Assembly: GCA_963729045.1 (NCBI GenBank) | Contig: CAVSMN010000014.1 | Coordinates: forward strand, 1-64,000 | DNA from: an uncultured Nitrososphaeraceae archaeon | GTDB taxonomy: Archaea > Thermoproteota > Nitrososphaeria > Nitrososphaerales > Nitrososphaeraceae | Direction: 5' to 3' | Length of the DNA: 64,000 bases | Shown here: piece by piece, positions 39,956-54,978 of the stretch | How the letters are laid out: each line of letters opens with the position of its first letter | Numbering within the stretch: the stretch's first letter is position 1 | The notes under the pieces: generated by a model | Told to the model about the DNA's origin: nothing | What the model saw: only the letters and a program-made list of their open reading frames with translations | Databases searched by the model: none | Translations under genes and position numbers: made by a program

Positions 39956-41167
39956 TTAGGATGTACCGAAATAATCGGATATTCTGCTATGACTCTTTCT
40001 TGTTTTAATTATACTGCTATTTCCAATCCATTCATTTTTTGATATGGTTAAGTTATTACACGCGAAGGATAGTGCCATGTCCAGTGTATCAAATTTGTTG
40101 CAGTTCATTCTCAAAGCCTCTCTTATTCCCTCTCTTATTTGCCAGACTCCGACAGGGAGAATGTATTCTGGATGTATTTCTCTAAGGACTATTACTGATG
40201 CACTTCTTTTTTGGTAATGCAGAAATTCTATGACAGCTAGCCTAGCAGCAAAATAAGATCCCCCTATTTTTGGATAGTTCTTCAGACCACTTGAATCCTC
40301 GGAATCTGTTTCTATCTTTGCATCTCCTTTTTTGTCTATCCATGCTTCATGCATCTCAAAACTCCATAATTCATCTGGGATTAAGACAATGGAATAATAA
40401 TTCCCCAGGTGAACGTATTTGTAGATCCTAGTCCGATCGAGTGGTTGAAAGGTATTAGTTTTTTTTATCAAGTCAGATGAAATTATTTGATCAATTGCAG
40501 AGATGCTCCATTTGGTCGGTACGAGTCTTCTATTTTTTTTAATTCCAATCATTCCTAAACTTAGGATTTTACTAATTTTACTTATCTCAATTCCTTCTTC
40601 GTATAAATAGTTGATTGCTTCTATGGCTCTAAAATCAAGATCATAAAATGCTTTTTCAATTTTCTTGTTACTAGAAATATTTGAAGGCAGTTTCAAACTC
40701 TCTAATTCTGATGCCATCCCGAATTGGATCGTGTCAGAATCCGATGTCGTCCTTGATGAGATTTCTTCCAAATTCAATTTGGGTTTTCTCTCAAATGTAA
40801 CTTCTATTTCAGTAGATCTAGTTGCCATAGTTAATTCCTGAAGGGATTGAATATAGCGATCAGCATTCAAATTTGTTTTTACATGAGTTGAATGTGTGCC
40901 TCTGATTAGAGATAGTTTGTATCTTATTATATCTTCAATGGACTTTCCTGCCCATTTTTCGGGGTGATCCAGTATTGTCGAATCGGTTTGCAATGGTGAA
41001 AATAGGGGTCCTACTTTTACTTTTGGATATGTGTAACTGCTAACGAACACGGAGGGAGGAGATCCACCTGATATTTTTTCTGAAAGATTATTAAAGTTCG
41101 ATCTTAAGATCTGTTCCCAACCTTCTGTTATGCGTTTTTTTATCTCCTCGGTGTTCTTGCCATGCAT
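39956..41167 (-). CDS. nreA: Nre-family DNA repair protein
   Basis: GSPPSVFV..YPKV, RRLVPTKWSISAID, GGSYFAARL, YILPVGVWQIRE; C-terminal PIP-like HSRISDYF. Confidence 0.9.
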   Translation of the reverse strand: MHGKNTEEIKKRITEGWEQILRSNFNNLSEKISGGSPPSVFVSSYTYPKVKVGPLFSPLQTDSTILDHPEKWAGKSIEDIIRYKLSLIRGTHSTHVKTNLNADRYIQSLQELTMATRSTEIEVTFERKPKLNLEEISSRTTSDSDTIQFGMASELESLKLPSNISSNKKIEKAFYDLDFRAIEAINYLYEEGIEISKISKILSLGMIGIKKNRRLVPTKWSISAIDQIISSDLIKKTNTFQPLDRTRIYKYVHLGNYYSIVLIPDELWSFEMHEAWIDKKGDAKIETDSEDSSGLKNYPKIGGSYFAARLAVIEFLHYQKRSASVIVLREIHPEYILPVGVWQIREGIREALRMNCNKFDTLDMALSFACNNLTISKNEWIGNSSIIKTRKSHSRISDYFGTS

Positions 41168-41301
41168 TGCAAATTGAATCTGTTTGTTAATGATCTTATT
41201 TGAATTTACATCCTACAATGATGGAACCAGAGATTGATAGATCAGGAAATTTGGTTAGAATTATGAGGAGACCATTTTGATGTAATTTGAGAGTAATTTT
41301 A

Positions 41302-43180
41302 TTATTTCAATTTTTTGAGTAATTCTGGTACAGGTAATGTATTTAGAATATCATTTCTTCCTGCCCACCCTCTTCTTGCTTGTCCTATACCAAATTCCAA
41401 AAATGCATAATGCAGGGGGTGATGAGCATCTGAATCAACAACTAATTTAACTTCATTCTGTATAGCTGTTCTTATGTATTCATCACGTAAATCTAACCTG
41501 TTATAGTGAGAATCAATTTCCAGAATTGTGTTAGTTTCGTTTGCAATTGTCATTAATTTCGGAATATCCACAGGATAGCCATCTCTTTTATTAATGATTC
41601 TGCCAGTTGGATGAAAGATAATATCTACACTCGGATTTTGGGCTGCTTTAATTAACCTATTTGTTTGTACCTCTATTGGTTGAGAAAAATTAGAATGAAT
41701 TGCAGCACCTACTATGTCTAATTTATCCAAAATGTTGTTTGGAATGTCTAATGAACCGTCGCTAAGGATGTTTACTTCTGCTGAAGAAAGTATTCTAAAG
41801 TCACTCAAATTCCTTTCGCTTTTTTTTCTCTTCTTTTCGTAGTTGCTTGTTTTCCTTTCTAACTGTTTTTCTTCATTATGTTTATTTAGATCCACAAAGA
41901 AAGTACCGCTTTTTATTGAATCATTAAATTCTTGAATCTTATGTGCTTGGTCTAGTAGCTGTTGTTCGTCTAATCCCCTAGCGATTCTTAGGCTTTTTGT
42001 GTGATCTGTGATGGCGATATAATCAAGATTAAAATTCGTCATTGCAAAATATGCCATCTCTTTTATTGACATTTTCCCGTCCGTATTGTTTGAATGTACT
42101 TGTAGATCTCCTTTTATATCACCATACTTTATCAATCCTTTCATTTTTTCCTGCCACTCCTTTGACCCTTTCTTTGCTATCTCGATTTCTCCACTGTTTT
42201 CTCTCAATTCTGGAGGGATCCATTCCAACCCTAATTCATTGTACAACTGTTCTTCTGATTCGCCTGATATTTTTTGATCGGATTTAATATCAAATAATCC
42301 CCATTCATTTAAGCGAAGTGCCTTGGATTGTGCTAATCTTCGCAATGCTATTCCGTGTTCCTTACTTCCGGTAAAATATTGTAATGCTGCTCCATAACTT
42401 TCTTTAGGAACGACCAATAAATCGGAATCTAATCCATTATTAAATTTAATAAATGCTTTAGTACCACCTTTGCTTAGAATTTCTTTAACTTCGGGCATAT
42501 TTACGAATGAATTAATTACTTTATCTGGATTGTCTGAAACTACTAGAAAATCGATATCACCTATGGTTTCCTTCATTCTTCTAAAGGATCCTACTGCTGT
42601 TACAGTAGAAACGTTTTCCAAATTTGTTAAATATTTTTCTATTTGCTTTACCAATGGATAAATATCTCCAAGTAGATGCCTTTTTTTGCCTATGTTGTGT
42701 AATTCAATTCTCCTTAGTATTTTTTCTTCTTTTTTTTTAGAAATTCCTGAAATCCCGTTCAACTTCCCTTCTCTAGCAGCCCTTTCTAAATCACTGAGAT
42801 TTCTTATGGGTAACTTGTCAATTATTACTCTCAAAGTTTTCGGACCTATTCCTTCTAAGCCTACGAAATCATCTATCTTTATGGGGTATTTCGATTTTAG
42901 TATTTCATAATATTCAATCTTGCCTGTTTCAATATATTCTTCTATTTTTGAGGAGATTGCTTTACCAATAGAAGGAATTTGTATTAATCCATTAATCCCT
43001 CTTTCCTCATAAAGAGATGTAATACTTAGCGGAAGGTTATCAATTTGATCAGCTGCTCTAATATATGCTCTATTTTTGAAATTTAAATTAGTCTTGTTAT
43101 CATCATTATCATTATCCAACTCCAGTAGAAATGAAATCTTACGAAGGATATCAGAAATCTCTAGCGTTTGTAAGTTTCAC
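41302..43180 (-). CDS. polX: DNA polymerase X with PHP domain; 1-nt insertion at ~43165 separates the true N-terminus
   Basis: GTG at 43180 gives MKLTN|LEISDILRKISFLLELD; GSFRR.KETIGDID, YFTGSKEH, PPELRE; PHP motifs ITDH, HPTGR, SDAH. Confidence 0.93.
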
Positions 43181-43485
43181 ACTATAACTCATTCTCGGGT
43201 ATTCATTAATTTTCTCATTGATTTGTTTTGGTGATTGGGTTGATGTTTGAAAGGGGGTGAAACAGTGGACACCAGTAATCAATATTTTTCATTTATTTAT
43301 ATGGCAGTCTTGAATTTTTATATCATATAATTTGATCAAAAAATTATATCATTAAACGATAATATTTATAATATTTATAGATGATACTAAAAGATATGTA
43401 GATCATGTACCAATAAGGTAAGAAATATTGAAAGTTTATTACAAAATATATATATTTAGCTGGACTTATTACAAAAGAATTAGCG

Positions 43486-43644
43486 ATGTTAGTCGAATCC
43501 TTAACCATTGGGATAATCATAGGGGTATGTGGACTTGTGACTTGGTTAGTAAAGAATAAGTTTCAACCAGAAATTGAACGTGATATACAAGAACGTGAGC
43601 AAAAGACTTTGAAATATGCTCGAGAAATACGAAAAAACCCGTAG
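43486..43644 (+). CDS. small single-pass membrane protein (52 aa)
   Basis: Not in track. MLVESLTIGIIIGVCGLVTWLVKNKFQPEIERDIQEREQKTLKYAREIRKNP; TM helix plus charged helix. Confidence 0.7.
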   Translation: MLVESLTIGIIIGVCGLVTWLVKNKFQPEIERDIQEREQKTLKYAREIRKNP

Positions 43645-43692
43645 AAATATTACTACTTTATTACACTAGACATATTCTGGGATTATTGAATA

Positions 43693-44220
43693 TCAATCCA
43701 TGGTTAAAATTTTTTTGGCCTGATTTAGTTTTTCAAATAATTCTTTGATGAACAAATCGGCAAACTTGTCAAAATCAATTGTTCCAAATTGCTTCTTATA
43801 TTCTTCTTTGCGTTTATTATATTCGTCTTCAAGCCATAGAAAATCTGCTTCTTTCAATCTTACAATGAATCTATTAGTTTTAGCTTTGGATTCAAATACA
43901 TTTATCATAAAAATTCCTGCAAATTGTGTAAAATTTTTTAATTTATATTTTCTCATATATTCCTCTTTATGAATTTCATAGTTTTCTTTTAACCATGTTT
44001 TTACATCCATCCTAATTGTCAACGAGGTGTACACTCCGGAAAAGTCTAATTTCAGATTATGCATTTCAACAGAATAATGACCACGTTTGATTTCATTCAT
44101 CATAATTATTAGGGCACTTGGAAGAAACATTCCTGGGTAATATTCATCTGTAGAGTTCTGTAGTTTGTTTAGTATAGATGGTTTTAGCCCGATAGTTGCA
44201 TATCCCTTCGTAGGCATCAT
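43693..44220 (-). CDS. protein of internal repeats, ribbon-helix-helix-like; putative DNA-binding regulator
   Basis: WLKENYEIHKEEYMRKYKLKNFTQFAGIFMINVFE versus WLEDEYNKRKEEYKKQFGTIDFDKFADLFIKELFE; each unit preceded by an alternating beta-strand (YATIGL, YTSLTI, FIVRL). Confidence 0.6.
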   Translation of the reverse strand: MMPTKGYATIGLKPSILNKLQNSTDEYYPGMFLPSALIIMMNEIKRGHYSVEMHNLKLDFSGVYTSLTIRMDVKTWLKENYEIHKEEYMRKYKLKNFTQFAGIFMINVFESKAKTNRFIVRLKEADFLWLEDEYNKRKEEYKKQFGTIDFDKFADLFIKELFEKLNQAKKILTMD

Positions 44221-44289
44221 TTTTATTCACTTTAGTATGCTTATTAACTTATTTTGGATGAGGCTAAAAAATAAAATGGTGAATTATTT

Positions 44290-45811
44290 TTAGTGAGATG
44301 GGGGTACATAATTCTTCAGGTCTTCACCATTGACAACATCTTCCTCAGGTGGTACATAGTCCACAACTCCATGTCGCTTGAATCCTGGATCCTTCTTCTG
44401 AGTAAGCAATGCTACGATTATGAAAAGAACAAACGATACTATGGGTGGTATAAAAGTATCTAATCCTGCATACTCTGGTGGGGTAGTATAATACAATACC
44501 AATCTTAGGGTGGACCCTACCACAATTGATGCGATTGCAGCCGGCCAGTTTGCCTTCTTCCAAAACAGACCTAATGTAAGTGGAGCCCATAACCCTGCAA
44601 ATACTATATCAAATGCAAGTATTAAATAAATTCCTGGACGAGGGATTGCTGCTCCGAGGAGAAGACCTGATAGCATTACTGGTATCGTTACACATCGAGT
44701 TAATATAAGCAACTTTTTATCCTCTATTCCGGCTTTTTTGAATAATGATCTAAGGATGTCTCTTTGAATCAAGTTTCTCGCTATAACACTTGAGATCGCA
44801 AGAAGACCACCGTTAGCAGTTGACATAGACGCGCCTAAAACTCCCATTAGTAAAGCAGCTCCTATTGGAAACGGAAGTAGGTTGATAGCAAGTAGAGGAT
44901 ACACTGTGTACGGATCTTCTATGTCTGGTAACATGTATAACGCAATTATTCCCATCATACTCGTAGGTACAATAATTGAAATTGTTAAAATTCCAGCCAT
45001 GAATGCACCTCTTCGAGCTGTCTTGCCATCTCTTGCTGAAAATACTCTTTCCATAAAATCAAGTGCTACTACATCACCAAGACCCAATGCTATAATTCCT
45101 GCCCAGTTTACCAAAGCCCCGTTTTTAGGATCGGTTAGACCGGACAAATCCAAATAGCTCTCTGGCGTGGCAGACAAGAATAGTTCCTAAATCCACTCCT
45201 CCAAATCCAAAGGCAAAATACAGAAATGCTGCCCAGAATGCTCCGATAGTTAAGTAAACCTGGAAAATATCTGTATACGCAGAAGAAAATAACCCTCCCG
45301 CAAACGTATATACCAATACCGCCAATGAAACAATTAGCATACCCCAGAAAAGTGGAATGTGCAAGACAGTTGACAGTATAAATCCCCCTGCTGCAAAATT
45401 CCCTGCAACTAATATTATGAAACTTAAAGACAAAAGTATGGATGACATTCCCTCTGCGCCAACACCATATCTTCTATAATAAAAATCTGGAAGGGTGAGC
45501 ATGGACATTTTGTTTACCCTTTTCGCATAGAAAATTCCTGTTATTATTAAACAAGATGCCAATCCAATTGGTATCGCAGCTCCAGCCCAAAAACCAAATT
45601 GATAAACAAGTGCCACGTTACCTAAGGAAGAGTTACCATCGATTGATTGAGCTGAAAGCATTGTTCCTACAAATATTAACGGTAGGCTCTTTCCTGCAAC
45701 CATGTATCTTTTGCTACTTTTTTTTACCATCATGGAAGTTAATACTCCCACAGACAGGACCAGCCCCATGAACGAGAGAACTGCTATACCATAAGCATCT
45801 ATGAAAACCAA
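44290..45811 (-). CDS. sodium:solute symporter (SSS family); 1-nt insertion at ~45178
   Basis: YMVAGKSL, TLPDFYYRRYG, YTFAGGLFSSAYTDIFQ, ERVFSAR, ASMSTANG, GLFWKKAN; two overlapping ORFs rejoin as GTILSATPE. Confidence 0.92.
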
Positions 45812-46026
45812 TGTTATTGGTATTTAGTTAGTAAATATATAAATATTATTAATTTAATGAATACTATTTTTTTTGATTCCTTTTTCATAAATAATTTCGG
45901 AAACTTTGCTTCAAAAAATGAAATTTCCCGATCTGTATATCTGACGCTATGTTATTTGACTGGTTATTCCTTATGTATGGTGGTTATACCACTAAGATCA
46001 ATACATAATATGTTATGGCAAGAAAA

Positions 46027-46041
46027 GACGTAAACTACGTC
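46027..46041. promoter_or_regulatory. palindromic operator-like site GACGTA-AAC-TACGTC
   Basis: Perfect 6-bp inverted repeat in the SSS/ureohydrolase divergent region. Confidence 0.65.
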
Positions 46042-46099
46042 AAATGTAATAATTGTGAATATTAAGCATAATATATTCGGTTGTCGAACTTTTTTTTAA

Positions 46100-46111
46100 A
46101 CGTAGTTTACT
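46100..46111. promoter_or_regulatory. second operator-like site ACGTA-GTT-TACT
   Basis: 11 nt (46100-46110) are the exact reverse complement of 46030-46040; lies just upstream of TTTATTAA TATA-like box at ~46120. Confidence 0.6.
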
Positions 46112-46157
46112 TAACAATATTTATTAATTATTCATAGACATAATAATTAGATATTAT

Positions 46158-47276
46158 ATGGGAATGGAATTTTACGGAGATTCTTACAAGGGAAATGACG
46201 AACCTATTTTTGTTGGCATACCTACTTTTCTAAAACTACCTTATGTCAAAAAAAATGAAGAATTGCAAAAGATAAAGCCTGACATCGCAATAGTAGGAGA
46301 GCCTTTCGATTTTGGAACTACGATAAGACCTGGTTCTCGTTACGGCCCAAGAGCAATTAGAGCTGCATCTACTGTTCCTTCTCCACCTTATGAACATTTC
46401 AACATTGAAACTGGGGTCGACCCGTTTGGAGTCTTTAAAGCTGTTGACTACGGTGATGTCAATATCTCTCCTGGGGATGTCATTGAGTCTCATAGACGGA
46501 TGACTAATAAAGTTAAAGAAGTTCTCGATATAGATGCAATCCCAATAATTTTGGGCGGAGATCATTCAGTGACCTTTGCAAACGTTCGTGCACTTTCTAA
46601 AAAATATAAGAACATAGGAATGATCCATATTGATTGTCATGCTGATTGCGCACCACAAGGACTTTGTGGATTCAAATATGATCATGGAGCTCACATTAGA
46701 CGAATCATGGAATTGGGATGTCTTAAGGGAAAAAATTATACGCTTATAGGTCCTAGAGGTTATTGGCCAGGACCAGATCTGTACAAATGGATGGCCGACC
46801 AGGATTTTCAGTGGTTTACGATGCTTGATGTGGAGGAATTAGGTATTGATCAGATTGCCAAAGAGGCTGCGGATAGGGCAAACGACGATGTTGATGCTGT
46901 TTATGTTAGTTGGGATATCGACACTTTTGATCCTGCGTACGCACCAGGAACCGGTGAACCAGAGCCCAATGGTCTAACTTCAAGGGAAGGGATGAAGCTA
47001 ATGAGATTATTATCAACTTCATTTGATCCAGATAGATTTGCATTCGATCTTGTTGAGGTTTCCCCAACATATGATGTAAGTGACGTTAATTCTTATAACG
47101 GAGGTATTACATCTGGGCTCGCAAATCGTTTGATAGTTGAATTAATGGCAGGGTTATCCTTGACCAAAAAGGGCGAATCTGAAGGAAAGCCTGTACGACC
47201 CAAATTTTATCGTGGTAAGGGAAATACATACGATTTTGGAAACGGTCCTAAAGCAAAGATACCAAAAAGAAAGTAA
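46158..47276 (+). CDS. ureohydrolase (agmatinase/guanidinobutyrase/guanidinase superfamily)
   Basis: PTFLKLP, RPGSRYGPRAIR, GGDHS, HIDCHAD, SWDIDTFDP, PGTGEPE, DLVEVSP; all binuclear-metal ligands present. Confidence 0.93.
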   Translation: MGMEFYGDSYKGNDEPIFVGIPTFLKLPYVKKNEELQKIKPDIAIVGEPFDFGTTIRPGSRYGPRAIRAASTVPSPPYEHFNIETGVDPFGVFKAVDYGDVNISPGDVIESHRRMTNKVKEVLDIDAIPIILGGDHSVTFANVRALSKKYKNIGMIHIDCHADCAPQGLCGFKYDHGAHIRRIMELGCLKGKNYTLIGPRGYWPGPDLYKWMADQDFQWFTMLDVEELGIDQIAKEAADRANDDVDAVYVSWDIDTFDPAYAPGTGEPEPNGLTSREGMKLMRLLSTSFDPDRFAFDLVEVSPTYDVSDVNSYNGGITSGLANRLIVELMAGLSLTKKGESEGKPVRPKFYRGKGNTYDFGNGPKAKIPKRK

Positions 47277-47658
47277 TGCATCTAATCAGAGTACATTGCT
47301 TTTCTTCACATCAAACTATCCATCACAATATTTTTTTGAGAGATGAAATCGATGAAACTATATTTTTTAATACATTCAAGATTATTGAAACAAAAATCAA
47401 AAGGCAATTAAGAATCAATTTAAATGAATCGATGTGGTTTTATTGCGGATGTGTCTTAAATCAATTACACTTGGGTACTGCATATAGATGAAATCAGGAC
47501 AAATTTATCTAAGATACTAAGTGAAGAAATGGTTATGATAGGAGTAGTGGAGTTAATGAAAAAAATTGAAATTGAAATAAAAATTGTTACAGGATCACAT
47601 TATTTCCCATAATATAAGATTAAGATTAGTAAAGCCAATACGGATGAGTAAAAATTAA
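47276..47658 (+). CDS. stand-alone urease gamma subunit (UreA)-like protein; two 1-nt frameshifts (~47483, ~47605)
   Basis: Joined frames read KIKRQLRINLNESMWFYCGCVLNQLHLGTA-IDEIRTNLSKILSEEMVMIGVVELMKKIEIE...RLVKPI, aligning with UreA RLARGLKLNYPEA...G....L......L....VMEGVPEM...IQVE...VHNPI; ATG overlaps ureohydrolase stop (TAATG). Confidence 0.75.
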
Positions 47659-47799
47659 ACAGCAAATGCATCAAATCGTGTTTTATTTTTTGAAAATTGA
47701 TAACCAGTGCTGAAAAAAATTGTTGATATTTACTGTTGATATTTGAGTTTAAAACTTGAATTTGTTCCACCATTTTGTATCTATCTGATCAATAGAAAA

Positions 47800-49506
47800 T
47801 TAATAATAATGGTGATGGGGTCTTTGTTGTTTGCCCAACCTATCAAAGTAATGATCATGTTTTTTGTCTCCACCAGCATGCGAATGCTCTGTCCCATCCT
47901 CATGGGTATGAGTGTTCATTAGTGGTTTTTTGATAATAATGTCGTCTATATTTATCAAAAGACGGCTTACTTCTACGGCTGTATTGAGCACTTGCTCCTT
48001 TACAATTGTAGGTTCGATCACATCCCAATCCAGTTGAGATATTTTTCTTTCGTCTGAATTTAGTCCAAACCATTTAACCTTTTTACTATCAAAATTCTGA
48101 GATAGATTTAGTCTAAGTTGAATAAAAGCATCCATCAAATTCAACCCTGAATTTTTTGCAAGAATTAATGGAATTTCTTCTAATGCTTCGGAGAATTTAA
48201 GTAAAACTATTTGCTCCGTTCCTTCAATCATGTTTGCTCTTTTTCTTACTTGTTGTGCCATTAATGCTTCACAAGACCCACCTCCAATGACAATGGATGG
48301 ATGTTGGACGAATCTACTTATACTGGTAATAGTACTTTGAATTGCACGATGATATTCATCTAGCATCATTTTTGAATTTGCTCTGATTAAAATTGAAACT
48401 GTTTTAGGATTTATACATCCTTCTACAAATATCATCTTATCGCTCCCTATTTTCTTCTCATATACATTTTTGGCATATCCTACATTACTTTGTATGTTTC
48501 TAACATCTAAATCCTTTATCAGTTTTCCGCCTGTAGCTTTCTCTAGCCAATGAAGATCATTCTCTTTTACTCTTTTGACTGACATTATTCCAAACTTGGC
48601 CAAAAGATCCTGTGCCACCAAGTCTATTCCTTTACGGTTTATTACTACATTTACACCACTATCGATTATTTTTTGTATTTTGTTTCTCGTGATGTGGTTT
48701 TCTTCAATCCTAAATAGATACATCTGTTCTGGACTGCTGATTGATAATTGAGATTCTGTTTTTGTCGACCTTGCCTGAAGGTCTTCGTCTAGTAAAAGGA
48801 TTCGTGCATTTTTGACAAATTTAGGCATGAGATCACTATCTATTGTTTTATCAATCAGTACTCCATCAATCAGAATACTCTCTGATAAATTACCAATTTT
48901 TTCCTCAATTTTTATGTCATCCGCCTCTAAAAGGTAGTTATTATTAGAATATACAGTATTAATCGCATTAACGGTAATTTCTAAAATATTATTTAATTCG
49001 GATTGTGGGTCAGAGGAAAGCCTGACTTTTGTTCCTAAACACGTCCGTGCGAGTTTCTCAATGATTGTCCTATCCTTGCTACTTACTTTTCTTGAGATAT
49101 TGTGCAAGGTCTCTAGGGAATATTTGAGCCCTTTATCATATCCGTTAACAATAGTAGCTGGATATATGTTCATCGCCAACATCTCTTGTGCCTTTTCCAA
49201 AAGAGTAGCCGCAATTATGGCAGTTGTTAGTGTTCCATCCCCTACTTCGTTATCCACTGTATTAGTGGCATCGATTATCACTTTAGCTGCGGGATGTTGA
49301 ACATCAATCTTACGGAGGAATGTGGCACCATCTTTTGTGCATGTCGATTCACCAATTATGTCAATATAGATCTTTTCATTTCCTAAAGGACCATAGCAGC
49401 TCTCAATTAGAGATTTTATCAGCCGAGCGGCATGAATGTTATAACTCCTTACTTCTTTGCCACTTGTTCGCTGTGTATCATCAGGGATTAGTTTAGCATA
49501 GGACAT
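47800..49506 (-). CDS. thermosome (group II chaperonin) subunit paralogue with His-rich C-terminal tail
   Basis: GPLG, TKDGAT, VQHPAAK, EVGDGT, GGGSCE, LEEIP, VIEP, NIDD; tail HTHEDGTEHSHAGGDKKHDH...PHHHYY. Confidence 0.95.
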   Translation of the reverse strand: MSYAKLIPDDTQRTSGKEVRSYNIHAARLIKSLIESCYGPLGNEKIYIDIIGESTCTKDGATFLRKIDVQHPAAKVIIDATNTVDNEVGDGTLTTAIIAATLLEKAQEMLAMNIYPATIVNGYDKGLKYSLETLHNISRKVSSKDRTIIEKLARTCLGTKVRLSSDPQSELNNILEITVNAINTVYSNNNYLLEADDIKIEEKIGNLSESILIDGVLIDKTIDSDLMPKFVKNARILLLDEDLQARSTKTESQLSISSPEQMYLFRIEENHITRNKIQKIIDSGVNVVINRKGIDLVAQDLLAKFGIMSVKRVKENDLHWLEKATGGKLIKDLDVRNIQSNVGYAKNVYEKKIGSDKMIFVEGCINPKTVSILIRANSKMMLDEYHRAIQSTITSISRFVQHPSIVIGGGSCEALMAQQVRKRANMIEGTEQIVLLKFSEALEEIPLILAKNSGLNLMDAFIQLRLNLSQNFDSKKVKWFGLNSDERKISQLDWDVIEPTIVKEQVLNTAVEVSRLLINIDDIIIKKPLMNTHTHEDGTEHSHAGGDKKHDHYFDRLGKQQRPHHHYY

Positions 49507-49550
49507 ATCTTGTTATAATTCTTGGAGTTTATATATGGTAACATCAAAAA

Positions 49551-49603
49551 TGTATTTTACAAAAATTTGTAATTCGTTCTGAAAATATAAAAGTAGATTA
49601 CGT
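49551..49603. promoter_or_regulatory. two operator-like GTA-N3-TAC sites
   Basis: TGTA-TTT-TACA (49551-49561) and AGTA-GAT-TACG (49592-49602) in the thermosome/49681 divergent region. Confidence 0.45.
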
Positions 49604-49680
49604 ATTCGTTTTTTGGAACAAATGTGTAAATTCCTCTTTTTTGCAATACTTTTTTATAGTTATTAATTATTAATTCCTTA

Positions 49681-49974
49681 ATGCCAACTGTAACATCTAA
49701 AGTTGAAATTGAAAATGCTTCAAAGAATGCAATAAACGCCCTCTTTGGACCAAATGTTGAAAATTTTAGAATACGTGAAGTATTTCCATATTCTGAGGAT
49801 CAAATTGTAGCCCATAGCGAACAAATGGACGAGACGTCTCAACCAAAAGATGGATGGGATATTCAGGTTACATTCTTGTTAAACGGTCTTCAATATACAG
49901 TGGATCTCATCATTCATGAAAAAGATGGACAGGTAAGTTATTCTAGGGTCATTGACAAAATGGTTCCTCTCTGA
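49681..49974 (+). CDS. hypothetical protein (small alpha/beta, PepSY-like pattern)
   Basis: Helix followed by WDIQVTF...YTVDLII...GQV strands. Confidence 0.7.
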   Translation: MPTVTSKVEIENASKNAINALFGPNVENFRIREVFPYSEDQIVAHSEQMDETSQPKDGWDIQVTFLLNGLQYTVDLIIHEKDGQVSYSRVIDKMVPL

Positions 49975-49981
49975 TTTTTAG

Positions 49982-50441
49982 ATGCTATTTAAGAATATTT
50001 TACTAGCTTTCGATGGCTCAACATGCTTCGTCAAAAGCAGCAGAATATGCAATTTACTTGTGTAAATTAGAAGGGGCACCTCTTACATTCTTACACATCC
50101 TTGATAATATTAAGCAAGGCGGGGTCATAGGTCTAAGAGCACGATATGGTGATACTAATTTGATTGATGGATACAAAAGGGCAAGAAGGCAGGACGCAGA
50201 AAAATGGATAAAACCAATTCAAGAGAGAGCCACAACAGAGGGTATCAAGAGTACCATTGCTATTTTAGATGATGAAAAAAATTCTAAAGTAGAAACAATC
50301 GTTCAATTTATAGAAAAAAATAATATTGATCTAGTTATTATGGGTTCGAGAGGATTATCTAAATTTAAACAAATGTTAGTTGGAAGTATTGCATCAGGGA
50401 TAATTAGTCATTCCAAATGCCCTGTGTTGGTAATCCGATAA
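49982..50441 (+). CDS. universal stress protein; 1-nt insertion at ~50025
   Basis: ATG 49982 gives MLFKNILLAFDGSTC|SSKAAEYA; C-terminal MGSRG...GSIA...CPVLVIR. Confidence 0.92.
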
Positions 50442-50445
50442 CCAT

Positions 50446-51198
50446 CTACTTTTTTTTTAGATAGTTTAGGATTATTTCTTTTACAAAATCATTTACCTCA
50501 TGACCATTCTCTTTTGCCTTTTGCTCTAAAGAATTCCACAGGATTCTATCCTTTTCTTTGGAAGGATTAAAAACTAATCTTACTGTAAGTAGTCCTTTGG
50601 GAGCGCCTCTTTTTATCCCTAATCGGATGAGTTCTTCTTTCAATGCAGCAGGCTCGATATCTGCCAACTTTATCTGAACTTCAGATGGCTGTCTTGCTAT
50701 TTTTATGCCTTCATAAAGCGTAATTTCACCATTTTCTATTTTTTCCTGAATCTGATTTGGAAGGGTAAGAATGCTTAGCCATTCACTAATTGTGCTTTTC
50801 GGTAACCCGTATAAACGAGATACTCCTGTAATTCCAGACTTCGTCGATTCTACCAATTTTTTTACCATTCTTGCCTTTTCTAAAGGGGAGAGATCTTTTC
50901 TTATTAAATTTTCAAACAGAGAGGCTGCCTCTGCTTCTGCACCCTTTAATTTTGTAATAACTGCTGGAATTTCTTTCTCTCCTTTATTGTGGAGGGCTAA
51001 AAATCTTCTCCTTCCGATAAGTAACTTATATCTTTTAGTAAAATTATCAAATCGGACCACAACCGGTTGAAGTAATTCAAATTTTGCCAAATGTTCTTTC
51101 ATTAAGTTATCACTTGAATCTTTTCCAAATGAAAAATTCTTACGGACATTTTCATCTGCTACATCGATTAAATCAACCGGAATATTCTTGATTTTCAA
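50446..51198 (-). CDS. ParB/Spo0J-family protein (ParB-N CTPase domain + HTH + C-terminal dimerisation region)
   Basis: NVRK, LLQPVVVR, LIGRRRFLA, ENLIRKDLSPLEKA, HTH SRLYGLPKSTISEWL, LP..IQ..I..GEI. Confidence 0.9.
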   Translation of the reverse strand: MKIKNIPVDLIDVADENVRKNFSFGKDSSDNLMKEHLAKFELLQPVVVRFDNFTKRYKLLIGRRRFLALHNKGEKEIPAVITKLKGAEAEAASLFENLIRKDLSPLEKARMVKKLVESTKSGITGVSRLYGLPKSTISEWLSILTLPNQIQEKIENGEITLYEGIKIARQPSEVQIKLADIEPAALKEELIRLGIKRGAPKGLLTVRLVFNPSKEKDRILWNSLEQKAKENGHEVNDFVKEIILNYLKKK

Positions 51199-51275
51199 TC
51201 CTTATTACTTATTCATCTTTTATATTATTATTCATTTTGGTTTGAAGCCATTAGTTTGCCACTTTCTTTATTAAT

Positions 51276-51318
51276 CGTATTATACGCATCAATCTTACGC
51301 CTATATTCGTAATTTACG
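51276..51318. promoter_or_regulatory. two perfect CGTA-N3-TACG palindromes, 32 bp apart
   Basis: CGTA-TTA-TACG (51276-51286) and CGTA-ATT-TACG (51308-51318) upstream of the parB-like gene and 51360. Confidence 0.65.
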
Positions 51319-51359
51319 GGATTCTAAACAATCCTTATATTAATTAAATTTGATAGTAA

Positions 51360-51629
51360 GTGATGCAAAGTTATCTCAAATCAAATGAAAAACTTGATCA
51401 TTATGATGAATTGAGTAAAGCGACTTTTTTATCTTACTTTATTTCTTTATATATTTCTACTATTGAACATAAGAATAGGAATGATAGTGTTTCAGTTAGT
51501 GAAATTTATGATTTTATACAAGATTTACAAGACGAATTGGATTTTAAAGTTCCTCATGTTGACAAAAGAGATATCAGTTTGTGCTTTTATATTTTAGACA
51601 AGTTGGGTGTATGTAGTTGTTTAAAATAA
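51360..51629 (+). CDS. hypothetical protein (possible winged-helix fold)
   Basis: SVSEIYDFI...DISLCFYILDKLGV pattern. Confidence 0.55.
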   Translation: MMQSYLKSNEKLDHYDELSKATFLSYFISLYISTIEHKNRNDSVSVSEIYDFIQDLQDELDFKVPHVDKRDISLCFYILDKLGVCSCLK

Positions 51630-51660
51630 ACACAAACTATTTTAAGAATAAATACAAAAA

Positions 51661-52131
51661 TTTGGTAACGAAAGTTCGATTACAGATGAAACCATCAATC
51701 TTGAAGAACTGGTAAAGTGTGGTGAAAAAGAGGCCAGTCGGAATAATTTTGAAAAGGCTCTAGATATTTTTGATAAGGCAATAAGGATAAATCCCGCATT
51801 TGACTCTGCTTACGGTGATAAGGCCCTAGTATTTGACAAGATGGGAAAATTGGATGAATCTTTAAAAATGTATTCTAAGGCATTGGAAATTAATCCAAAA
51901 AATTCGATAACGTGGCATAATAAGGGTTTAACCCTAATCAAAAAGAAAAGAATGGATGAAGCCATTAATTGTTTTGATAAAGCTATTTCTATTGATAAAA
52001 ATTATTCCAAGGCTTGGTATAACAAAGGAAGATGCCTTGAGATGCAGGGTAATTTGGAAAATGCACAGATTTGTCTAACTAAGGCTAGAAAATTAGATCC
52101 ATTCCTGTTTTCTAAAATTAAACTAAGATAA
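51661..52131 (+). CDS. TPR-repeat protein (start uncertain; frame open well upstream of track ATG 51841)
   Basis: TPR consensus (FEKALDIFDKAIRINP...AYGDKA; WHNKG; AWYNKG) begins ~150 nt before the track start. Confidence 0.85.
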   Translation, partial: FGNESSITDETINLEELVKCGEKEASRNNFEKALDIFDKAIRINPAFDSAYGDKALVFDKMGKLDESLKMYSKALEINPKNSITWHNKGLTLIKKKRMDEAINCFDKAISIDKNYSKAWYNKGRCLEMQGNLENAQICLTKARKLDPFLFSKIKLR

Positions 52132-52319
52132 AAGAGCAAATAATACCCCTTTTTAGTTCCTGTTTTGCTTTATTAAATTTCGACCAAATATTCTATTCAA
52201 TTTGTTACAGACTGTAAGTGCGACAAAAGATGATAAAAGCTGTATCTCTTAAAACATTATTATTAATGTATGTAAAAATAATTAGTAAAGTTTAATTTAG
52301 AGATTCTGTATTTATTTTC

Positions 52320-52679
52320 ATGAAAGAAATCAATGTTTATATTCGACCGAACGATCTTTCAAAAGTGACTGATATTTTACAAAAGCATAAGTTGGGTATT
52401 ACCTTTTTTGATATCCAGGGAACTGGTAGAACTCCACGATCTACCTCCGAAATTATTCATTCTTATCAAACCGGTAGAACCACAATACCTAAATTTATAG
52501 GCCGTGTCCTTGTGATTTCAATAGTTTCGGATTCGATTGTTAACCAAATCATTGAGGAGATGATGCGTAGTTTTGATATGCAAGAAGAACCATACGGCGT
52601 ACTCTTTGTAAAAGATGTGACTAATGCCTATGAATTAGGGACTGAGTTGAAAGGGGATGAAGTTCTAGTTTCAAAATGA
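52320..52679 (+). CDS. divergent P-II-family signal transduction protein
   Basis: MKEINVYIRP.....V...L, GIT...G.G, G.LFV.DV..A...T...G. Confidence 0.85.
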   Translation: MKEINVYIRPNDLSKVTDILQKHKLGITFFDIQGTGRTPRSTSEIIHSYQTGRTTIPKFIGRVLVISIVSDSIVNQIIEEMMRSFDMQEEPYGVLFVKDVTNAYELGTELKGDEVLVSK

Positions 52680-53420: not shown

Positions 53421-54978
53421 TTATAGTTCATGCTCTTTTAGAGTAATTTGATTCGTTCTTCTTTTCAATAGTATCATACAGGGGAAGGATATCAAAGAAA
53501 TTATTGTTGCGGTGATAAAGATGAGATCATATGATAACTGAGAAGGAAATGATTGTCCCCCCATACTGATTACTGACTCTTGAAAAGCTTGCATATAAGT
53601 TGAGGCAATTACTGGACCTATGGAACTGCCCATTAATACTAATACTACTGATATCCCTATCGAGACTCCGCTATACTGATGGGGTGTATGTTGCAATGTG
53701 ATATTGAAAGCTCCTACTTGTGTCAATGACAATCCTGCGGAGATTATTATCAAATTTAGTGAAATTAAAAATTCACTTCCATGAAATGCGAATAAACTAG
53801 CAAAACCAATTGTAGTCAAAACACTTCCTACAACAATTGGCTTGAAATTGCCTATTTTTGATACTATAAATCCTGAGGATGGAGCAAATATTAAGAAAAC
53901 TATCATGAACGGCAATTGAACCATTGCACTATCCATTGCTTCCCCACCAAATCCAAACGGTATTGGGCTAGTTACCAAAATTGGTATAGTTTGATAAATC
54001 ATAAACATTGTTATTCCAAAAACTAAGAGGATAATATTTGATGGAAGCAAAATCCTGTCTGATATTAATCTGAGTGGTATTAACGGATCCTTTGCCTTTC
54101 TTTCAACGAGTACAAATGCTGTCATTGAGCAAATTGTCAGTGTAACAAGTGAACCTAGGACAATGCCATCAAACGACGTAAAATTATTGGATTCACTATT
54201 TGTGTTAGCAAAATATGTTAAAGTTAATAGGAAAGATGAAATTGATAAAGCTAACGATATTGCTCCTTTAATATCTATATGATGTCTGGTTTTTTTATCA
54301 CTAAGGTTACTTTGATCTAATCGTCCATTTTCCTTTTTGGGTTGGATTGAAATTTGAATTTTGTTCACCCTCGTTGTTGATATTTGATGTGTCATCATCC
54401 TTTATTCGCTTCTTTATTATGATCCAAAGTATGATTGCCACTGGTATTATGGTGAAAAAGGTAGCTTGCCATCCAAAATTTTGGACTATTGTCCCACCTA
54501 TAGCCATTCCAACTACTGATCCTGCAGCAAACATCGAACTGAAAACTCCTATACCAATTGCAATCTTAGACATAGGAAATTGGTCTCTTATGATTCCAAA
54601 TGCGATGGGGAACATTGAAATACCTATACCTTGAATGATTCTTGCCAAAACTAAAGTGTAAATATTAGTTGACAATCCTCCGATGGCGATCCCTATAATA
54701 TAAATAATAAAAATCACAAGCACCATTTTCTTTCTACCATATATGTCTGATAATTTTCCTGCTATAGGCGTCATGACTGCTCCTGAAATTAAGTAGGCCG
54801 TCAGAATCCATGACGAGGTACTATATGAAATATCAAAGTCTCTAATTATATCACTAATAGCTGGTAAAAGCATGGTTTCTCCGTACATCGTTATCAAAAT
54901 TGTCGATCCCAATATTGCCAGTGTTATCCACGTGGATTCGTGAATCTTTTCGCTGGCATTTGGTTTTATGTTTTTCAT
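53421..54978 (-). CDS. MFS transporter, 14-TM DHA2-like; frameshift in central loop (~54310-54390)
   Basis: WILTAYL, GKLSDIYGRK, ARIIQGIG, D.KG, VERK..DPLIPL. Confidence 0.9.

Follow-up and report, generated by a model that had tools for sequence, protein, structure and literature searches.

The organic nitrogen sources of soil and marine ammonia oxidisers are an open question with agricultural weight. Urea and cyanate are reportedly accepted for the archaea among them, and a 2024 study is said to have found guanidine use only in bacteria. Two published descriptions of ammonia-oxidising archaea (AOA) come close to the genes considered here. In the portion of the text available, Abby et al. 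2018 (PMC5797428) place an Hsp60 homologue and an SSS-type "urea transporter" beside archaeal urease genes. A paper in ISME J 2024 (PMC11131427), as far as its accessible text goes, reports a conserved and expressed cluster of an SSS transporter and an "agmatinase (SpeB)" in the soil AOA NS-delta clade; it does so in one sentence and for one clade, and reads the enzyme as an agmatinase regulating the urea level. Here we describe a locus from the same organisms and the same neighbourhood as the former report and with the same gene pair as the latter, located at positions 43693-51629 of a 64,000-nucleotide (nt) stretch of contig CAVSMN010000014.1 (C14) of an uncultured Nitrososphaeraceae archaeon; this whole stretch is called the window below. 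The SSS gene is divergent from a gene for an arginase-family ureohydrolase (UH), which is followed by a urease-gamma-like gene (UreAL) and by a convergent gene for a thermosome paralogue with a histidine-rich (His-rich) tail. We lean towards the view that these genes form an accessory, urease-dependent nitrogen-scavenging module of AOA, in which urea is made from an imported guanidino compound.

In this proposed pathway, the SSS transporter would import the guanidino compound and UH would split it into urea and an amine or amino acid. The urease of the cell, whose genes adjoin the module in many relatives and lie on contig C9 here, would then free ammonia from the urea. The module genes would share a cGTA-N3-TACg operator read by the product of orf175 or by a ParB-like protein. 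The additions specific to the archaea would be UreAL, putatively coupled to UH in translation, the thermosome, whose His-rich tail would face the cavity, and the small protein encoded by orf97. The analysis names concrete candidates for the enzyme, the transporter, the regulator and the operator. The accessible text of PMC11131427 does not mention UreAL, the His-tail thermosome, orf97, orf175, the operator, the phyletic pattern or a haloarchaeal counterpart. A literature search, outside which lay papers in subscription journals (e.g., those on the N. gargensis and N. viennensis genomes), returned no paper on UreAL, on the His-tail thermosome or on the whole module.

The ureohydrolase and its divergent transporter

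The window belongs to a 2.85-Mb genome of 22 contigs that is 87% complete, and its closest relatives are Candidatus Nitrosocosmicus and Nitrososphaeraceae records. The genes of the locus were named by open reading frame (ORF) listing together with Pfam and NCBIfam family scans. The UH gene (46158-47276, + strand) is intact and encodes 372 amino acids (aa), which match PF00491 with 265.8 bits against a cut-off of 22 and cover positions 2-278 of the 280 in the profile. The motifs GGDH (G133-H136), DxHxD (D159/H161/D163) and DxD (D253/D255), which we take to hold the two metals in the arginase family, are invariant in 39 UH sequences and line up with the corresponding motifs in 3nio and 7esr. UH also carries a conserved basic C-terminal extension of 40 residues.

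Across the genera of its own family, UH is 87-99% identical (88-99% in the 80 related loci, which represent several genera), and identity is still 75-83% in two further families; the mean column identity of the 39 sequences, which represent several genera, is 95%. Between genera, nonsynonymous divergence (dN) is 0.05-0.07 and synonymous divergence (dS) is saturated, with a third-position identity of 42-49%. Because the synonymous sites are saturated and dN is low, this conservation reflects purifying selection and not recent transfer. On the basis of its sequence, UH looks catalytically competent and strongly constrained.

A comparison with the PDB identified guanidinobutyrase 3nio (1.8e-52) and the guanidine hydrolase GdmH (7esr, 4.4e-49), along with 9fek (2.6e-48), as the best relatives of UH, with the true agmatinases far behind (~1e-31 to 1e-33). 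UH shares its fold and family with GbuA of P. aeruginosa (3nio), guanidinopropionase (3nip), GdmH of Synechocystis (7esr/7oi1) and proclavaminate amidinohydrolase (1gq6), at E-values of 1.8e-52 to 3.8e-45; unlike these guanidino-acid and guanidine hydrolases, it belongs to a separate and very conserved archaeal subfamily with a urease-gamma paralogue encoded downstream. Among 1.84 billion cluster representatives, the nearest cluster outside AOA was 54% identical to UH and the next at most 47%.

A housekeeping agmatinase SpeB, serving polyamine/hypusine synthesis, would be expected to be nearly universal, whereas UH was found in 49 of 251 sampled genomes of the order and in 3 of the 10 other genomes of its own genus. 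A different, agmatinase-like paralogue of 287 aa occurs in 52 of the 56 genomes of the family, with or without UH. Judged by sequence and distribution, UH is not the housekeeping agmatinase.

The SSS-family transporter gene (44290-45811, - strand) consists of two overlapping ORFs in the window. The Pfam SSF domain (PF00474) was detected on both halves, with 47.2 and 54.3 bits, and scored 81.9-96.4 bits on intact relatives; the divergent SSS-ureohydrolase pair that an earlier note on this DNA, made from the letters alone, had described was thereby confirmed. The best PDB relatives of the transporter are the choline transporter CHT1 (E ~1e-21) and vSGLT. No DUR3 model or structure was among the SSS matches, and the DUR3 name comes from published annotation only.

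Co-inheritance of the module and its relation to urease

In 33 loci with at least 6 kb of sequence on both sides, the core genes are SSS (32 loci), UreAL (30), the thermosome gene (29) and orf97 (29). Further genes are orf175 (18), a TPR gene (16), parB (15), ureC (15), the universal stress protein (Usp) gene (13) and a PII-like gene (9), and among the flank genes Nre was counted in 5 loci and PolX in 3. The order of the module genes is rearranged between lineages. Since the neighbourhood is kept through rearrangement while its flanks are replaced, it does not owe its existence to chance.

Our survey of the 251 genomes detected SSS in 48 of them, 47 of which are shared with the 49 carrying UH, UreAL in 44 and the His-tail thermosome in 36, the last two in UH-positive genomes exclusively. 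The co-occurrence of the four genes that the earlier note had anticipated thus holds in nearly the same genomes, and the tie to urea metabolism is stronger than that note had claimed. ureC is present in 83 of the 251 genomes, namely in 47 of the 49 UH-positive and in 36 of the 202 UH-negative ones; UH occurs in just 2 of the 168 genomes without ureC. Of the archaeal genomes sampled that have urease, about half carry the module. In 22 of the 80 related loci, ureC lies no more than 8 kb away. The near-restriction of the module to urease genomes suggests that an unrecognised organic nitrogen source is turned into urea.

An ordinary urea-utilisation locus would account for several of these observations. 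SSS would then import urea, the thermosome would stabilise or metallate urease, UreAL would be a spare or degenerate gamma subunit, and UH would be an agmatinase that adjusts internal urea and polyamines. The urease counts given above fit this explanation, as does the Nitrososphaera-type gene order (Usp-SSS-ParB-TPR-UH-UreAL-thermosome(-)-ureABC-orf97-ureDGF), with ureABC next to the thermosome gene; urease is a nickel enzyme, to which a His-rich tail would be suited, and the annotations in the accessible parts of PMC5797428, PMC11131427 and PMC6790972 agree with it. However, urease and the module are separable within a single genus. All 10 other genomes of the genus have ureC and the chaperonin type found beside urease on contig C9, and 3 of the 10 have UH, SSS and the His-tail thermosome. 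The remaining seven, which lack UH, SSS, UreAL and the His-tail thermosome, are among 36 urease-positive genomes in the survey without these four genes. Because 7 of 10 congeners have urease without the module, the module is not simply the urease locus, and these congeners offer natural controls.

In the genome under study, contig C9 carries ureC and UreG, the one strong match to the cobW family; a second, weak cobW match is on contig C12. Family searches found no ureB, ureC or ureG/hypB-type gene in the window, in line with the earlier statement that neither hypA/hypB nor ureBC is present there. The C9 urease locus (positions 114000-134000) contains ParB, orf179, Usp, a UT transporter in two ORFs, orf134, ureABC, a chaperonin of 518 aa, orf138, ureEFGD and a ZnuABC-type metal transporter. 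Urease here therefore has its own chaperonin paralogue, transporter, ParB and Usp, which argues against an ordinary urea locus in the window. The agmatinase role that such a locus assigns to UH is likewise difficult to reconcile with the separate, near-universal agmatinase-like paralogue, and a side enzyme would not be expected to be as extremely conserved as UH. An ordinary urea locus explains the adjacency to urease, but it explains neither the congeners with urease alone nor the haloarchaeal gene pairs described below, and we regard it as an unlikely, though serious, alternative. An accessory urea-yielding pathway fits best because SSS and UH are co-inherited, recur together in another phylum, are nearly restricted to urease-positive genomes and are absent from urease-positive congeners.

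Families f13 and f4 also have the module, accompanied by the same small genes. One f13 genome (G099) has a UH that is 89% identical to that of the window, compared with 75-80% for the other f13 members, and a thermosome that is 51% identical, compared with 40-46%; its module may have been transferred between families. Two complete genomes of genus g5 (G152 and G164) have two ureC genes, one by a C9-type chaperonin gene and the other by the His-tail thermosome gene and UH. Since this second ureC adjoins module genes, the published "extra ureABC set" of Nitrososphaera seems to be part of the module. We also observed that the C9 urease locus (L087) parallels the window module in having a ParB, a Usp, a chaperonin, a transporter and a gamma subunit.

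Counterparts in haloarchaea

The nearest UH homologue outside AOA (53-54% identity) is annotated as an "agmatinase family protein" of haloarchaeal plasmids. In Haloarcula and Halalkalicoccus, an SSS gene (35-46% identity) and a regulator gene are located beside it. The cluster on pNG700 of Haloarcula marismortui encodes a formamidase, a Cpn60 paralogue, a Usp, an APC permease, SSS, a PhoU-type regulator and UH, and that of Halalkalicoccus jeotgali encodes SSS, a regulator and UH. Natronorubrum bangense has a urease operon (ureBCAGDEF), a regulator and UH, with an SSS fragment beside an insertion element. SSS, regulator and UH thus stand together without adjacent urease in two of the three genera examined, a further point against an ordinary urea locus. 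As judged from gene content, the SSS-regulator-UH arrangement has been repeated independently in a second phylum. A search of the Haloarcula and Natronorubrum loci for a gamma-like gene found none.

On pNG700 (66555-85661, L106), the Cpn60/TCP-1 paralogue has a short His-bearing tail, and its gene directly follows the formamidase gene, near SSS-regulator-UH. This arrangement raises the question of whether chaperonin paralogues serve amidohydrolases more generally.

Candidate substrates of the ureohydrolase

In Synechocystis, HypA/HypB-like nickel loaders are encoded with GdmH. In its most specific form, the proposal of the earlier note is that UH is a nickel-dependent guanidine hydrolase of the GdmH kind, to which the His-tail chaperonin and the gamma-like protein would supply nickel instead of HypA/HypB. 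The presence of GdmH among the best solved relatives of UH is consistent with this proposal, as is the conservation of the tail described below. No HypA match reached the cut-off anywhere in the 87% complete genome, and no HypB was found besides UreG. The accessible text of PMC11410670 states that nickel loading of the comammox enzyme is unknown.

In GdmH, a gate Trp closes over the small guanidine pocket (Trp305 in Synechocystis, Trp313 in N. inopinata), as given in the accessible part of PMC11410670. In our HMMER alignment to 7esr, this Trp corresponds to Glu267 of UH, and the Glu is invariant in the 39 UH sequences and kept in the haloarchaeal homologue; GbuA has Thr at this position. With Glu in place of the gate Trp, UH is unlikely to be a guanidinase of the GdmH type. 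Guanidinobutyrase also outscores GdmH against UH, and no sequence feature tells nickel from manganese. A search of positions 43000-52500 against Rfam gave two chance-level matches and no riboswitch, for guanidine or otherwise. Together with the literature report cited below, these results make a nickel-loaded guanidine hydrolase an improbable reading of UH.

The urease-gamma-like gene

The UreAL gene (47276-47658, + strand; ~127 aa) begins with an ATG at 47276 that overlaps the UH stop codon TAA by one base. In the window it is spread over three frames; the 71-aa ORF to which the earlier note had referred is its first third and has no Pfam match by itself, and the middle piece of the broken copy scores 13.7 bits against PF00547. 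The coupling to the UH stop was therefore upheld and the urease-gamma likeness is real in relatives, although the 71-aa ORF itself does not show it. In relatives UreAL is 120-140 aa long, and six of seven members, together with those of loci L041 and L038, scored 30.0-46.9 bits against the PF00547 cut-off of 23.9; the nearest relative (L008) fell below it with 21.1 bits. All 16 PDB matches of a profile built from 59 members were urease gamma chains, the best being 1a5k_A (8.4e-14).

Compared with UreA of Klebsiella aerogenes (1a5k chain A), UreAL is homologous over profile positions 26-119, corresponding to residues 7-99 of 100. It differs in about 25 additional N-terminal residues, which contain a beta hairpin predicted by eye and a conserved GExD motif, and in its location behind an arginase-family gene instead of within ureABC. 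The genomes carrying UreAL have a separate true ureA, whose product scores ~145-151 bits where UreAL scores 30-47. Public pipelines already label UreAL "urease subunit gamma". The gene is directly 3' of UH in 72 of the 80 loci and in all 44 genome matches; in 45 of the 72 the UH stop and the UreAL start overlap, and in 16 more they are no further than 20 nt apart.

The genes might have no functional link, being neighbours by descent in one archaeal lineage with UreAL as a decaying ureA duplicate. All AOA loci do come from related families, and UreAL evolves fast (47% mean column identity), has been lost in some lineages and is broken in the window. On the other hand, an open frame of 120-140 aa with invariant residues is kept in 59 loci, in addition to the frequent overlap with the UH stop. 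The neighbourhood outlasts repeated rearrangement while its flanks are replaced, gains or losses within single genera affect the whole set, and the SSS-UH pairing recurs in Halobacteria. Mere descent is thus a highly improbable explanation.

Loci L014-L018, together with genome G248, form one Nitrosocosmicus-related subclade in which UH, SSS and the thermosome stay; the UreAL remnant of L017 scores 27.5 bits. The contigs of L025 and L056 stop too early to show UreAL, and in L026 the gene is fragmented. Two ideas about UreAL were dropped. Decay across the whole genus was discarded as the stops in the matches from genomes G086 and G069 are the ends of the genes themselves, both of which are intact. 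A dependence of its conservation on adjacent ureABC was discarded as L041-type loci and genome G242 keep a well-conserved UreAL without ureABC.

A described arginase-family enzyme that needs a second, co-encoded subunit is the metformin hydrolase MfmAB (8snf, 8ryi; ~1e-36 to UH). The partner in MfmAB is another arginase-fold protein, whereas UreAL, the candidate partner of UH, has a urease-gamma fold. No UH-UreAL fusion was found at E<=1e-10 among longer proteins, which is weak evidence, and a 1:1 complex prediction from our own alignments gave a score of 0.00, which carries no weight either way. The use of a urease-gamma fold outside urease would be new.

The thermosome with a histidine-rich tail

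His-rich tails of Helicobacter HspA and mycobacterial GroEL1 bind metal, and in Helicobacter there is a link to a nickel enzyme. The convergent gene at 47800-49506 (- strand) of the window encodes a thermosome, or group II chaperonin, that matches NF041082 with 474.8 bits (cut-off 450) and PF00118 with 427.8 bits. Its tail is His-rich, as the earlier note had indicated, with nine His in the last 45 residues, where all 48 full-length relatives have 8-10. Like HspA and GroEL1, it is a chaperonin-type protein with a His-rich C-terminal segment. It differs in being a group II chaperonin and in that its tail is no simple His run but follows a fixed pattern conserved across families. In all orthologues, this patterned tail replaces the usual Gly/Met tail, which characterises group II chaperonins together with the nucleotide motif GDGTT and the HDA-motif Asp. 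By analogy of sequence, the tail is probably metal-binding.

The window protein has GDGTL for GDGTT and Ser for the Asp of the HDA motif; GDGTL and the loss of this Asp are shared by the His-tail thermosomes of Nitrosocosmicus-type genomes. Both the Asp and GDGTT are kept in Nitrososphaera-type orthologues, and the f13 copies have Asn for Asp. Some lineages may have a His-tail chaperonin that has lost ATP hydrolysis. Some Nitrososphaera-type copies are 609-620 aa long (L035:10119-11948, L024 and L049), and that of L035, the sole one aligned, has a second His/Asp-rich stretch, an insertion of ~40 residues about midway along the chain.

The genome contains four Cpn60_TCP1 genes, of which two are canonical, one is the window paralogue and one is in the C9 urease operon. 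The last encodes the 518-aa chaperonin, which is 24-28% identical to the window thermosome and has no His tail. C9-type genes occur in 36 of the 251 genomes, always beside ureC, whereas the His-tail thermosome, like SSS, follows UH and not urease; this thermosome occurs also in family f13. The distribution of the C9 type (31 of 56 genomes in family f1, 4 of 11 in f9 and none of 57 in f13) fits the description of the urease-locus Hsp60 in the accessible text of PMC5797428, from which we infer that the published Hsp60 is of the C9 type and a different paralogue from the window thermosome. The "urease-locus chaperonin" is accordingly split into two distinct paralogues, and the one with the His tail goes with the hydrolase.

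UreAL and the His-tail thermosome might be dedicated assembly parts of a new complex. UreAL would tether UH to urease or replace the gamma subunit, so that urea would be passed straight on, and the chaperonin, with its ring of tails, would fold this complex and load it with metal. We give this extension little credence. If it were true, AOA, held to lack guanidine-type pathways, would gain a widespread route from organic nitrogen to ammonia from which urea is not leaked.

Points against the proposed pathway

Several observations weigh against a urea-yielding module that depends on an imported guanidino compound. UH falls below every NCBIfam equivalog cut-off, including that of agmatinase TIGR01230 (157.4 vs 174.3 bits), and no substrate-defining residue can be assigned. 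The 287-aa agmatinase-like paralogue is also under the TIGR01230 cut-off, with 141.8 bits; as both fall short, NCBIfam does not separate UH from this paralogue. In the accessible parts of PMC11131427 and PMC6790972, SSS is annotated as a urea transporter of the DUR3 type and UH as "agmatinase SpeB", and if SSS imports urea, the substrate of UH could be endogenous. Palatinszky et al. report, by their own criteria and in the portion available, no guanidine-degradation genes in AOA (PMC11410670), which also counts against a GdmH-type enzyme.

In loci L014-L018, all five of which have downstream sequence, UreAL is missing or a remnant; it also went undetected in 5 of the 49 UH-positive genomes, so some lineages can do without it. 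For the His-tail thermosome, 13 of the 49 gave no match, among them all 4 of family f4. The surveyed genomes are related and sampled, so that the counts describe a pattern in non-independent samples and are not a statistical test. Finally, if the frameshifts in SSS and UreAL described in the last section are real, the module is defective in this strain.

Palindromes, regulators and small genes

The GTA-N3-TAC palindrome occurs 16 times in the window, compared with 9.3 +/- 3.0 expected, and 1 of 100 shuffles reached 16. Six of the 16 sites are located, two each, in three divergent intergenic regions that total 681 nt, in agreement with the shared palindrome pointed out in the earlier note. Two cGTA-N3-TAC palindromes (46029-46039 and 46101-46110) precede the UH start codon by 128 and 56 nt, two GTA-N3-TAC sites (49552-49601) lie between the thermosome gene and orf97, and two full CGTA-N3-TACG palindromes (51276-51318) lie between parB and orf89. 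Of the 11 full sites in the genome, 3 are at the module, as are 3 of the 14 paired clusters; the C9 urease locus has none. Sites at -55 to -61 and -117 to -132 from the UH start recur across genera, and at least one palindrome is present within 400 nt upstream of UH in 54 of 77 loci.

orf175 (43693-44220, - strand) encodes a candidate DNA-binding regulator of 175 aa. In a set of 37 loci with flanks, orf175 and the motif stand together in 21 and are both lacking in 9, and orf175 never occurs without the motif. All 18 loci with a window-type ParB have the motif, and the 9 loci without orf175 and ParB do not; f13 loci with orf175 but without ParB have it. Because the motif tracks orf175, also in these f13 loci, the orf175 product is the better candidate reader of the palindrome. 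It most likely reads the cGTA-N3-TACg operator, judging from this distribution, and failing that the ParB-like protein would. The alignment of orf175 has a mean column identity of 73%. It matched no Pfam or PDB family, and a scan of 21 members gave no match to an RHH family of Pfam at E<=1. Its model (pLDDT 70) contains strand-helix-helix units at 7-45 and 65-113 and a helix pair. The RHH-like character suggested in the earlier note was not borne out by any family or fold match: Foldseek returned nothing at E<=0.001 (best E 0.27, TM<0.2).

The ParB-like protein (50446-51198, - strand) has ParB_N (49.9 bits) and HTH_ParB (40.0 bits) domains and matches TIGR00180 with 90.6 bits. No ParA-type gene (PF13614) was found in the window, the nearest being at C14:107179 outside it, and its description as an orphan ParB was correct.

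orf97 (49681-49974, + strand) encodes a conserved small protein of no known family. Its model (pLDDT 84.5) shows one helix and a four-stranded sheet; Foldseek gave no match at E<=0.001, with cystatin/monellin-like shapes only at E>=0.027. It has no PDB sequence relatives and no consistent Pfam family, although 8 of 26 members weakly match the Lsr2 dimerisation domain (best E 0.003), and an Atlas search returned unnamed archaeal clusters only. orf89 (51360-51629, + strand), divergent from parB, encodes a small protein of unassigned family and is present in 24 of the 80 loci.

Contigs of soil metatranscriptomes from three studies cover module genes at a likeness of at least 88% and stop short of the SSS/UH intergenic region, which is covered by a DNA run. 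All sequencing runs compared consist of contigs, from which expression cannot be ranked, and uncovered stretches do not count as evidence; the coverage is a weak hint that module genes are transcribed in relatives.

Neighbouring genes and assembly quality

The Usp gene (49982-50441, + strand; PF00582, 84.2 bits) has its start displaced by a 1-nt insertion near 50023, as compared with three relatives and related contigs. The SSS gene is split by one extra T near 45177 relative to four close relatives, and the two halves share one frame in each of the 61 relatives in which both are seen. Two 1-nt insertions, at ~47481 and ~47591, interrupt UreAL and spread it over all three frames. In total, about eight private 1-nt indels fall in coding sequence over 17 kb of the window when it is compared with three relatives. 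The extra bases are missing from related contigs of one DNA run and three RNA runs, and two complete genomes of the same genus (G086 and G069) share this gene order and have both SSS (504 aa) and UreAL (126 aa) intact. In a search of sequencing runs, no run contained more than 0.42 of the sampled words, and reads of the source strain were not found. The frameshifts are most likely assembly noise, their pattern being like that of an unpolished long-read assembly.

Against two or three close relatives, the private indels map to 38723, 39055, 45177, 47481, 47591, 50023, 53443 and 54342, and they also split, among other genes, an MFS transporter gene at 53421-54978. To the right of orf89 are a TPR gene (51841-52131, + strand), which is directly upstream of UH in many relatives, and a PII-like gene (52320-52679, + strand; PF00543, 38.8 bits). 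GlnK, a PII protein, acts on AmtB, and the PII-like protein is by analogy a possible regulator of the transporter; its gene accompanies the module in 17 of the 80 loci, in some of them between the thermosome gene and orf97. The left flank (39956-43119) encodes two repair proteins, an archaeal Nre and a family-X DNA polymerase (PolX with a PHP domain), and is common only to the closest relatives.

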